Position numbers and translations under genes: made by a program. A stretch of DNA of 64,000 bases from an uncultured bacterium (GTDB lineage: Bacteria > Patescibacteriota > Minisyncoccia > Phycocordibacterales > UBA6065): assembly GCA_966243015.1 (NCBI GenBank), contig CBIMES010000001.1, forward strand, positions 298,076-362,075. Reading direction: 5' to 3'. Within the stretch, counting starts at the first letter, position 1. Each line of letters starts with the position of its first letter. The notes beneath the pieces were generated by a model. It was not told the origin of the DNA and ran no database searches. It saw nothing but the letters and a program-made list of their open reading frames with translations. This document shows, in pieces, positions 6,547-7,677 of this stretch.

Positions 6547-7677
6547 GTGACGCCAATAACCATGAATCAGGAAATTATGTCATCGGAGCGGCTGAAAGCC
6601 TCTCTTGCTATTCCGGACCTAACGGATCCACGGAATGGAATTCACGCGATAAACATTATTATAGAAAAAATCGTGACTGCCATGAAAAAAGGCAATCCCG
6701 ATTCCTCTATTGAAGAAATCCGGGGGGATCCGAGAGTGTCGATCAAGGATAATTTCGACGACCTCTTGTTTCCAAAAGACAACGCGGGCCGATCCTCCCG
6801 ATACACTCGATACGTATCTGAAGACACTGTCCTCAGAACCCACATGTCATCCGCAGCGCCCTCATGGCTCAGAAAAAGATCAGCAGACCGAGCCCAAGAC
6901 ACAATCGCCATTTTTCCAGGGATGTGCTACCGCCGCGATGTTGTCGACAGGACGCATTGCGGAGAACCTCATCAAATGGATATATGGCGTATCAAAAGAG
7001 GAGGTCGGCGCTGTGACAGAAAGGCGTTGATAAAGACAATAGAAACAGTCCTTGGCGCCGTCGTTCCTCAGTTCCAATATCGAGCCAACGAAGTCAGACA
7101 CCCTTACACGATTAACGGCCTCGAGGTCGAGATTCTTGTAAATGATACGTGGCTTGAAATTCTAGAGTGCGGTGAAATACACCCAACCGTGCTCATGAAC
7201 GCAGGTCTTGATCCTGATGAATATTCAGGGCTCGCTCTGGGAATGGGTCTCGACAGACTGGTGATGGCCCTTAAGAGAATCGACGATATCAGAATCCTCA
7301 GGTCTCAAAACCCGAGAATTAAGAAACAGCTGATGAACCTTGAGCCATTTGTCGTCACGTCAAATCAACCAGCCGCAAAACGGGTTATCTCCTATTCAAC
7401 CTCTGTTAAAGAAACAGAGGAAGATACATGCGAGAAAATTCGAGACGGCCTTGGAAAAGATGCCGTCTTCCTGGAGCAGATAGAATACGCGGAAACCCCC
7501 TACGAGGAACTGCCGGAGAAAGCCCGCCTTAACCTCGGCATCAAGCCCGACCAAAAGAACGTGGTGGCCACGATCACGTTTCGATCAATAGACGGTTCCC
7601 TGGCCCGCCCCATGGTAAACAATTGGATAGAGACGCTCTACCCAAAACTCAACCAAGGCAGCAAAGGCTACATCTAA
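6547..7677 (+). CDS. Monomeric phenylalanyl-tRNA synthetase-like class II aaRS (PheS-type catalytic core plus C-terminal FDX-ACB-like domain, mitochondrial-type architecture)
   Basis: [10 protein letters not shown]...VLRTHMSS...FPGMCYRRD...HQMD...[41 protein letters not shown] matches the PheRS-alpha motif 2/3 region (RTHTS, PGRVYR.D, WLEVLGCGMVHPNVL..GIDPEVYSGFAFGMGMERL). The C-terminal ~100 aa (..[14 protein letters not shown]..) resembles the ferredoxin-fold anticodon-binding domain. Low-GC gene. Confidence 0.7.
   Translation: [376 protein letters not shown]

Follow-up and report, generated by a model that had tools for sequence, protein, structure and literature searches.

A stretch of 64,000 nucleotides from an uncultured member of the Patescibacteriota (hereafter the window) was analysed around an open reading frame (ORF) at 6547-7677 of the plus strand. 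Its product of 376 amino acids had been described in an original prediction as a monomeric, mitochondrial-type synthetase resembling phenylalanyl-tRNA synthetase (PheRS). The ORF is present with a GTG start, and all the motifs cited earlier were found in its translation. The protein belongs to the family SrmL, and its gene is a transcription unit of its own that converges on a six-gene operon of the minus strand; gene and operon lie on a low-GC island (Table 1). The start of SrmL is most likely the ATG at 6562, which gives a protein of 371 amino acids, because the homologues are overwhelmingly of this length, the modal length of the family, and because an identical public protein (P0393, 371 amino acids) was called from the same codon. 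Another identical public protein (P0001, 366 amino acids) starts at ATG 6577, the choice of an alternative caller.

The stop codon of SrmL is separated by 103 nt from the convergent stop codon of the last gene of the operon, which encodes a paralogue of lysyl-tRNA synthetase (LysRS). Two hairpins occupy this interval. The first (7691-7725) has 17-nt arms that are 94% complementary, the second (7740-7761) is a GC-rich stem of 8 bp, and they are likely bidirectional terminators. Rfam detected no T-box or riboswitch leader upstream of SrmL or in the island; the lone sub-threshold match, to a SAM_alpha leader (E=0.9), fell inside the MccD-like gene and was rejected.

Table 1. Positions in the window of SrmL, its domains and the features of the surrounding island. 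SAM, S-adenosylmethionine; PLP, pyridoxal phosphate; Orn, ornithine; DAP, diaminopimelate; GC3, GC content at third codon positions.
Feature	Position	Strand	Basis
SrmL coding sequence	6562..7677	+	ORF translation; NF051887 match; P0393 start; modal family length
Class IIc (PheS-type) catalytic core, amino acids 31-261 (376-residue numbering)	6637..7329	+	tRNA-synt_2d; PheS alignments; residue tables
FDX-ACB-type ferredoxin-fold domain, amino acids 264-376	7336..7674	+	Profile, predicted structure, Foldseek, motif alignment
SrmL family-specific core residues: R88, P141, D145, W147, H185, Y187, E207, E210, L229, L231			
Candidate promoter TTCACA-18-TACAAT upstream of SrmL	6485..6514	+	Consensus match only
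Two hairpins between the convergent SrmL and LysRS-like stop codons	7691..7761	.	Sequence complementarity
Compositional island	6020..13700	.	GC 0.42-0.49 and GC3 0.45-0.53 in all eight genes
ORF of 67 amino acids with hydrophobic C-terminus, in low-GC stretch	6182..6385	-	Gene call present in public assemblies; no conservation among related cassettes
Divergent LysRS-like class IIb paralogue, 481 amino acids, last gene of the operon	7781..9226	-	Pfam tRNA-synt_2, 4e-46
dCTP-deaminase-like protein 1, 180 amino acids	9300..9842	-	Pfam DCD, 3e-34; PDB dCTP deaminases, 2e-15
dCTP-deaminase-like protein 2, 172 amino acids; 4-nt overlap with next gene	9839..10357	-	Pfam DCD, 2.5e-28; conserved in cassette
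MccD-like class I SAM-dependent transferase, 273 amino acids	10361..11182	-	PDB 5FCD 'MccD'
PLP-dependent decarboxylase, Orn/DAP/Arg family, 401 amino acids	11195..12400	-	Pfam and NCBIfam, all below the lysA cutoff; PDB DAP decarboxylases, 4e-26
MccF-type S66 serine peptidase, 339 amino acids, first gene of the operon	12397..13416	-	PDB matches

Domain plan and family of SrmL

The PheS-type class II core proposed originally was readily recovered. It matched Pfam tRNA-synt_2d (E=8.4e-37, amino acids 31-261), the sole Pfam domain reported, and the alpha chains (PheS) of bacterial PheRS in the PDB (E~1e-20, 27-29% identity). Pfam gave no FDX-ACB match for the C-terminal ~110 amino acids of the window protein itself; a homologue 54% identical to it (P0117) passes the FDX-ACB model with 34.4 bits (cutoff 31.1). 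Furthermore, a profile of the C-terminal domain of SrmL matched the C-terminal domain of P. aeruginosa PheT (positions 691-784 of 792, E=0.008). The AlphaFold2 model of SrmL (pLDDT 86, pTM 0.82) shows for this domain the ferredoxin-like topology beta-alpha-beta-(alpha)-beta-alpha, so that structure prediction, named beforehand as a check for the FDX-ACB fold, bore it out. The best Foldseek matches of the model were human mitochondrial PheRS (FARS2; 3CMQ and 5MGV) over both domains, with E~1e-24 and TMq of 0.70-0.76; bacterial PheS chains covered the core only. On these four grounds, the C-terminal ~110 amino acids are an FDX-ACB-type domain.

Like FARS2 (3CMQ, 5MGV, 3TUP), SrmL is one polypeptide in which a PheS-type core is followed by a C-terminal FDX-ACB domain, and it likewise lacks an editing domain and a beta subunit; the two are ~20% identical in sequence. 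Bacterial PheS is the closest relative of the SrmL core by sequence, and motifs 2 and 3 and the TH and HQ elements are kept. However, unlike PheS, which is the alpha subunit of an (alpha-beta)2 enzyme, SrmL has no N-terminal helical domain and no PheT gene as partner, and it carries its own FDX-ACB domain. The PheS N-terminal domain (Phe_tRNA-synt_N) was detected in SrmL neither with Pfam nor with NCBIfam, and no pheT was found in the 64-kb window when its ORFs were tested and a tblastn search was run; pheS is likewise absent from the window, among whose largest ORFs are LeuRS, AlaRS and DnaK. SrmL is a monomeric class IIc aminoacyl-tRNA synthetase (aaRS) paralogue in which, as in mitochondrial PheRS, an FDX-ACB domain follows a PheS core, and in this the single-chain architecture recognised at the outset is confirmed by the full-length Foldseek match to FARS2.

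Among the NCBIfam models, SrmL passed NF051887 ('PheS-related mystery ligase SrmL'), an equivalog model of unknown function, with 388.9 bits (cutoff 300, E=2.1e-116) over positions 2-349 of the 349 of the profile. It failed TIGR00468 for pheS (107.2 bits, cutoff 237.45), TIGR00469 for pheS_mito (118.1 bits in two stretches, cutoff 258.35), the archaeal-type pheS model and sepS (22.6 bits, cutoff 380.65), and no PylS match was obtained. In the profile comparison advised in the original prediction, none of the named synthetase families took the protein in, and a family of its own did.

Homologues are numerous. A search at E<=1e-5 returned 1152 clusters at 90% identity, mostly from Patescibacteria; the top 120 of them are all 52-70% identical to the window protein and, where named, Patescibacteria or Parcubacteria. 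In a library of representatives at 50% identity, 120 SrmL clusters were found at E<=1e-30 and 843 at E<=1e-10. Species-dereplicated genomes contained about 20 loci in metagenome-assembled genomes of Patescibacteria type, with SrmL 52-69% identical, and SrmL of ~40% identity in dozens of Actinomycetota (Nocardia, Microbacterium, Brevibacterium, Streptomyces, Kitasatospora, Amycolatopsis and other genera). The actinobacterial proteins score ~530 bits on NF051887 and share the family-invariant residues with the window protein, being ~40% identical to its Patescibacteria subclade. A rough neighbour-joining tree separated canonical PheS, a tight clade of 380-residue monomeric proteins and a diverse SrmL clade with at least five subclades. 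Thus the claim that such an architecture is unusual for bacteria was overstated, given more than 1000 SrmL clusters, the homologues in Actinomycetota and a second monomeric family that is still more widespread in Patescibacteria. A literature search found no paper on SrmL, on bacterial monomeric PheRS-like enzymes or on the island cassette; two apparent matches concerned pheS counter-selection and archaeal markers only.

The distribution of SrmL is patchy, and the gene is sometimes duplicated. At four loci (L009, L012, L016 and L089), SrmL genes from two different subclades are only a few kb apart, in tandem in L016, and in L015 the operon is bracketed by two SrmL copies of the window type. 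The chromosome of Aeromicrobium sp. CTD01-1L150 carries four identical copies (L032, L034, L035, L037), each followed by an IS481-family transposase, and SrmL appears to ride there on a mobile element. SrmL-like genes of 39-42% identity were also found on three contigs filed as viral, L091 and L092 (IMG/VR, 508 and 517 kb) and L093; the length of the first two, both above 500 kb, suggests huge phages or misfiled Patescibacteria genomes. One protein of the representative library (P0342, 4090 amino acids) aligned with the SrmL query in 25 distinct places, best at amino acids 213-273 in the region of motif 3; an artefact of the assembly or a very large repeat protein are possible explanations.

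The second monomeric family, with a PheS core and an FDX-ACB domain in 380 amino acids, shares with SrmL the two-domain architecture and the phylum, and the tree groups both apart from canonical PheS. It is represented by L006:17952-19094(-), by L085-L087 at 8001-9143 and by P0121-P0240. The family is only ~30% identical to SrmL and, unlike it, retains a PheS-type pocket (FHQ, FPY, GAGLV, GWAFG), the anticodon motifs RDIS and LDEY and housekeeping neighbourhoods: the genes adjoin those of gyrB, CCA-adding enzyme, S15 and PNPase, and PheT is not among their neighbours. Across Wolfe-, Pace- and Parcubacteria its members share 80-90% identity, and the score against the mitochondrial PheRS model is 237 bits (cutoff 258). 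In many Patescibacteria this family probably supplies the housekeeping PheRS; no paper on it was found in the literature search.

These data bear on whether SrmL could itself be the only housekeeping PheRS of a reduced genome devoid of PheS and PheT. The absence of both genes from the window would fit this explanation, as would the apparent use of a monomeric PheRS-like enzyme in housekeeping contexts by Patescibacteria. That enzyme, however, is the 380-residue family with its PheS-like pocket, and SrmL coexists with PheS/PheT or PheS in relatives. In L088, SrmL (67% identical) is followed directly by PheS and PheT, in L004 it adjoins a PheS that passes TIGR00468 (262 bits, cutoff 237), and in L006 the cassette is flanked by the 380-residue paralogue. 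Actinomycetota in culture that possess SrmL rely on PheS/PheT, and the enzyme of M. tuberculosis has been described (PMC8136816). Considering also the foreign composition of the island, the patchy distribution with occasional duplication and the failed PheRS cutoffs, a housekeeping function is very unlikely: SrmL is an accessory enzyme, not the PheRS of the cell.

Catalytic motifs, substrate pocket and anticodon motif

SrmL keeps the motif 2 sequence YRRD (R129, D131), H137, Q143, H99/S101, E204 and the motif 3 residue R237. By these residues, its adenylate-forming machinery is intact, with the Arg of motifs 2 and 3, the TH and HQ elements and the Glu of the Mg site all in place.

The substrate pocket is altered. 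Residues were aligned to PheS of E. coli, S. haemolyticus and M. tuberculosis, and invariance was assessed over the window SrmL with 25 homologues from Patescibacteria and 50 from Actinomycetota. Within this set, Y86, R88, W147, H185, Y187, G191, E207, L229 and L231 are invariant where PheS has D, F, L, F, F, S, G, F and F, respectively, and P141 replaces the Phe of motif 2 that precedes HQ in the compared PheS sequences. Residue 210 is Glu in SrmL of Patescibacteria, Arg in that of Actinomycetota and Met in PheS. The L-Phe cavity of the M. tuberculosis enzyme is lined by Phe255, Phe257, Gly282 and Val286 of the alpha chain (PMC8136816). An ungapped alignment to this chain places E207 at Gly282 and I211 at Val286; in the alignment to E. 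coli PheS, H185 and Y187 correspond to F248 and F250, while T188 and A230 are unchanged (T251 and A294). The cavity motifs FPF, G..V and GFAFG of PheS have thus become HPY, E..I and GLALG, and the Pro for Phe at 141, HPY for FPF and Glu for Gly282 set SrmL apart from FARS2 as well as from PheS. No correlation was visible between residue 211 and the set of neighbouring genes. The pocket substitutions argue for a different substrate, although they do not prove it.

The motif of the C-terminal domain that reads the anticodon has changed as well. In PheT, the Asp and the Tyr/Phe of the motif FDVY read the anticodon nucleotide G34 (Asp729 and Tyr731 in the T. thermophilus protein; PMC8136816). In SrmL the FDxY motif is AETPY in Patescibacteria of the window type and ARTPH in Actinomycetota, and it is followed by a conserved insertion of ~10 residues, (E/D)xLPxxARxxLG. 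In the subclade of the window, Val takes the place of the RDL[AS] Asp (KRVIS in the window protein), whereas actinobacterial members keep a conserved RD[IL]S Asp there. The G34 contacts of the FARS2 type, made by the Asp and the aromatic residue of FDxY and by the Asp of RDL[AS], are therefore not found in the window SrmL. The label 'PheRS-like' accordingly holds for the fold, and does not extend to the PheRS families, whose pheS and pheS_mito cutoffs were failed, nor to the pocket and the anticodon motif with their family-invariant changes.

Class IIc synthetases offer a precedent for such a shift, PylRS and SepRS having evolved a new amino-acid specificity from the PheRS lineage, and we take this as a lead only. 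SrmL belongs to neither of the two by hidden Markov model and has no linked tRNA gene in the window or in 40 related loci.

The altered pocket admits another explanation, which is that SrmL serves as a drug-insensitive or alternative PheRS. As an editing-free monomeric Phe-tRNA ligase, it would exclude through its reshaped pocket a PheRS-directed aminoacyl-adenylate mimic made by the neighbouring operon, and the lone actinobacterial copies would be stand-alone resistance genes. The complete mitochondrial-PheRS architecture with all catalytic motifs kept and the unchanged T188 and A230 are consistent with this. Human cytosolic PheRS has Asn, Tyr, Asn and Phe at the four cavity positions and is still specific for Phe (PMC8136816), so that the pocket changes do not alone exclude phenylalanine. 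On the other hand, the invariant charged pair Arg88/Glu207 and His185 are situated at or next to positions of the phenyl pocket, the Asp/Tyr motif that reads G34 is lost, and SrmL lies far below both PheRS equivalog cutoffs. Moreover, we know of no natural PheRS-directed aminoacyl-nucleotide.

The low-GC island, its operon and its recurrence

The GC3 values range from 0.45 to 0.53 in every gene between 6182 and 13416, as against 0.67-0.82 in DnaK, LeuRS, AlaRS, PepF and the immediate flanks. SrmL lies on a horizontally acquired island of ~7.7 kb, and since SrmL and the operon have the same foreign composition, they arrived together. Both the low-GC, island-borne position and the horizontal acquisition suspected from the sequence are upheld by this gene-by-gene analysis. 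Neither flanking direct repeats nor an integrase were found at the borders of the island. PADLOC, run on the island proteins, returned only a generic methyltransferase-domain match and no defence system.

The convergent operon, with its tailoring and immunity genes of microcin C type and its LysRS-like paralogue, which did not figure in the original prediction, is the most informative context of SrmL. Its transcription proceeds from the S66 peptidase through the PLP decarboxylase, the MccD-like protein and the two dCTP-deaminase-like proteins to the LysRS-like paralogue. The S66 peptidase is closest to the MccF-like proteins Lmo1638 (2.5e-63) and that of B. anthracis (1e-61) and to E. coli MccF (4e-43), whereas murein LD-carboxypeptidases of the LdcA type gave only 1e-13 to 1e-28. 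For the MccD-like protein, the sole strong PDB match is 5FCD (E=3.6e-24, amino acids 5-256), the next one having E=4e-4. The PLP decarboxylase gene immediately adjoins the MccD-like gene and is, by position, a candidate counterpart of the MccE1 step. The first dCTP-deaminase-like protein scores 87.5 bits on TIGR02274, below the cutoff of 92.8. The LysRS-like protein matches LysRS in the PDB (1e-51) and remains below all LysRS, EpmA and LysX cutoffs, its best NCBIfam score being 241 bits against the LysRS cutoff of 468. Family-invariant changes, FRNQG for FRNEG (E to Q in motif 2), LPHFT for NPEFT and NGMLV for GGMEL, make it look re-tooled rather than a spare LysRS.

The roles of MccD, MccE1, MccF and MccY have been reviewed; MccF hydrolyses the aminoacyl-nucleotide and confers self-immunity, and MccY carbamoyltransferases decorate some cytidine-based relatives of microcin C (PMC8323819). 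By homology only, the operon shares with the microcin C system an MccD-like transferase and a peptidase of the MccF clade; adjacent to the former is the PLP decarboxylase, a candidate for the MccE1 step. In contrast, MccB (ThiF-like), the MccA ORF and the MccC exporter are not on the island, which carries instead the LysRS-like paralogue, the two dCTP-deaminase-like proteins and SrmL, and lacks any exporter.

The region immediately upstream of the island (2567-6015) contains genes for a GCN5-related N-acetyltransferase (GNAT), an ABC exporter and an ATP-grasp protein of 334 amino acids, which share the composition of the host and show no conservation along with the cassette. The NCBIfam matches of the exporter include the model of a cyanophycin-metabolism-associated ABC transporter, and the ATP-grasp protein most resembles the ligase part of cyanophycin synthetase and GshAB; every one of these scores is far below its cutoff. 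Elsewhere in the window we noted a short-form AlaRS of 604 amino acids at 39347-41161(-) (NF002436, 718 bits), the window's only tRNAs, tRNA-Ala GGC and UGC at 59517-59590(-) and 60301-60375(-), and four ORFs of 424-753 amino acids with host composition and no NCBIfam match at E<=1e-10 (22106-24367(-), 35083-36468(-), 36500-37855(-), 48238-49512(-)).

The DnaK of the window is 85-92% identical to that of named metagenome-assembled genomes, and the host is a Candidatus Paceibacterota (Patescibacteria) organism. The island arrangement recurs on ten public contigs of up to 494 kb. The same seven genes in the same order, at identities of 50-82% and with unrelated flanks, were found in L001/L002, L003 (=L014), L006, L007, L008, L010 and L015, which places the block in at least seven other species of Patescibacteria. 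The LysRS-like gene adjoins SrmL in nine loci other than the window, and nine dereplicated loci with unrelated flanks have the SrmL, LysRS-like and S66 genes side by side. In L017 the three are kept, and the tailoring genes are swapped for a carbamoyltransferase and a CN-hydrolase. Other neighbours of close SrmL homologues comprise radical-SAM/SPASM proteins, GNATs, amidohydrolases, a carbamoyltransferase, S51 or S66 peptidases, and a PheS-like paralogue, two GlyRS-like paralogues or a member of a second SrmL subclade. The SrmL gene of L090 lies in another neighbourhood rich in synthetase paralogues (180-3167 and 7682-13032), with two GlyRS-like paralogues in tandem, several radical-SAM genes and genes for an S66 peptidase, an M24 peptidase and a carbamoyltransferase around it. 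At a distance of a few kb from SrmL, L001 (3073-5495) encodes a deoxyhypusine synthase, an AdoMet decarboxylase and a methyltransferase of TRM5/TYW2 type, and L088 (898-2685) encodes an S51 peptidase and an AdoMet decarboxylase; aminopropyl-donor metabolism is recurrent near SrmL and not conserved across loci.

The operon is missing beside SrmL in about half of the close Patescibacteria loci, and the actinobacterial members, unlike the window SrmL, have no conserved cassette. Their real neighbours are MerR, major facilitator superfamily, VIT, GNAT and two-component genes; the ORF clusters that first appeared as conserved partners proved to be shadow ORFs overlapping srmL in other frames and were discarded.

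These neighbourhoods speak to the resistance explanation from both sides. SrmL adjoins immunity-type peptidases (MccF-type S66 or S51) in several loci, it stays constant beside variable sets of tailoring genes, and it occurs as lone copies in Actinomycetota, some of them associated with IS481 and multi-copy. In gene clusters for aaRS inhibitors, self-resistance is usually conferred by an additional copy of the aaRS. However, the pairs of SrmL subclades side by side in L009, L012, L016 and L089 would be odd for a single resistance function. Taken with the pocket and anticodon data, we regard a resistance copy as improbable, while retaining it as the main rival.

SrmL might also be self-contained and independent of the operon, merely sharing variable islands with it; it could, for example, aminoacylate a modified tRNA or rRNA nucleoside or a protein, in the manner of GluQRS or EpmA. 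Its stand-alone occurrence in ~50 actinobacterial species with heterogeneous neighbours would agree with this, as would the lack of the cassette in about half of the close Patescibacteria homologues and the separate, convergent transcription unit set off from the operon by the hairpins. The conserved insertion in the RNA-binding domain likewise suggests a specific macromolecular acceptor. Yet SrmL has the LysRS-like and S66 genes beside it in the nine dereplicated loci mentioned above, their pairing survives the swap of tailoring genes in L017, and SrmL shares the foreign composition of the operon, which points to joint arrival. In our judgement a stand-alone function is rather unlikely.

Possible role and significance of SrmL

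We put at about an even chance the reading that SrmL is an accessory ligase of new specificity, tied to a pathway of aminoacyl-nucleotide type. At the expense of ATP, SrmL would activate an amino acid or similar carboxylate, probably one other than Phe, and would then pass it to an RNA-type acceptor held by the remodelled C-terminal domain; the changes in the pocket of SrmL have introduced His, Tyr, Glu and Arg. In the island, SrmL, the LysRS-like paralogue and the enzymes of microcin C type may together make, or cope with, a metabolite of aminoacyl-nucleotide type. The aaRS paralogues would replace the missing MccB/MccA core, the MccD-like aminocarboxypropyl transferase and the PLP decarboxylase would tailor the product, and the MccF-type hydrolase would provide self-protection.

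Several observations weigh against this assignment. Tolerance of a varied cavity by human cytosolic PheRS leaves room for phenylalanine as the substrate, no dedicated tRNA was found near SrmL in the island or in 40 related loci, and the chemistry of SrmL is throughout deduced from sequence. No ThiF-type (MccB) domain was detected in any island protein with Pfam and NCBIfam, and no conserved MccA-like short ORF precedes the operon across 10 loci. Finally, SrmL must be able to function without the operon partners because about half of the close loci lack them, as do the Actinomycetota, in which SrmL has no conserved neighbours.

The original prediction had left three options, a resistance copy, a non-canonical aminoacyl transferase or a horizontally acquired enzyme. 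They remain the right ones: the third is established by the composition of the island, and either of the first two may apply. The accessory-ligase reading can be taken one step further, to a doubtful and more specific proposal in which the island encodes a chemistry like that of microcin C without MccB and MccA. Two re-tooled paralogues, SrmL and the LysRS-like protein, would assemble a warhead of aminoacyl-nucleotide type, for which the presence of two dCTP-deaminase-like proteins makes a cytosine nucleotide conceivable; the MccD-like protein and the decarboxylase would aminopropylate this warhead, and the MccF-like peptidase would restrain it. If this were true, the warhead would be a weapon made by ultra-small Patescibacteria. 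Actinomycetota are known hosts of some Patescibacteria, and in that case the lone actinobacterial SrmL might serve to counter the weapon, or might be an element of this conflict that was exchanged horizontally.

Synthetase paralogues that act outside translation have revealed new biochemistry, as with PylRS, SepRS, EpmA, GluQRS, AsnA and the amino-acid:carrier-protein ligases. The SrmL family is large and strongly conserved, and NCBI has named it a "mystery ligase". The family is abundant and was already catalogued; what is new is its context in a conserved mobile cassette and the residue-level evidence for re-specialisation. The window gives the family a testable setting, a compact mobile block of seven genes whose other members point to aminoacyl-nucleotide chemistry and which, at ~7.5 kb, is small enough to be synthesised and expressed. 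In addition, the data suggest that many Patescibacteria use a monomeric PheRS of mitochondrial style as their housekeeping enzyme, which bears on the origin of the mitochondrial architecture.

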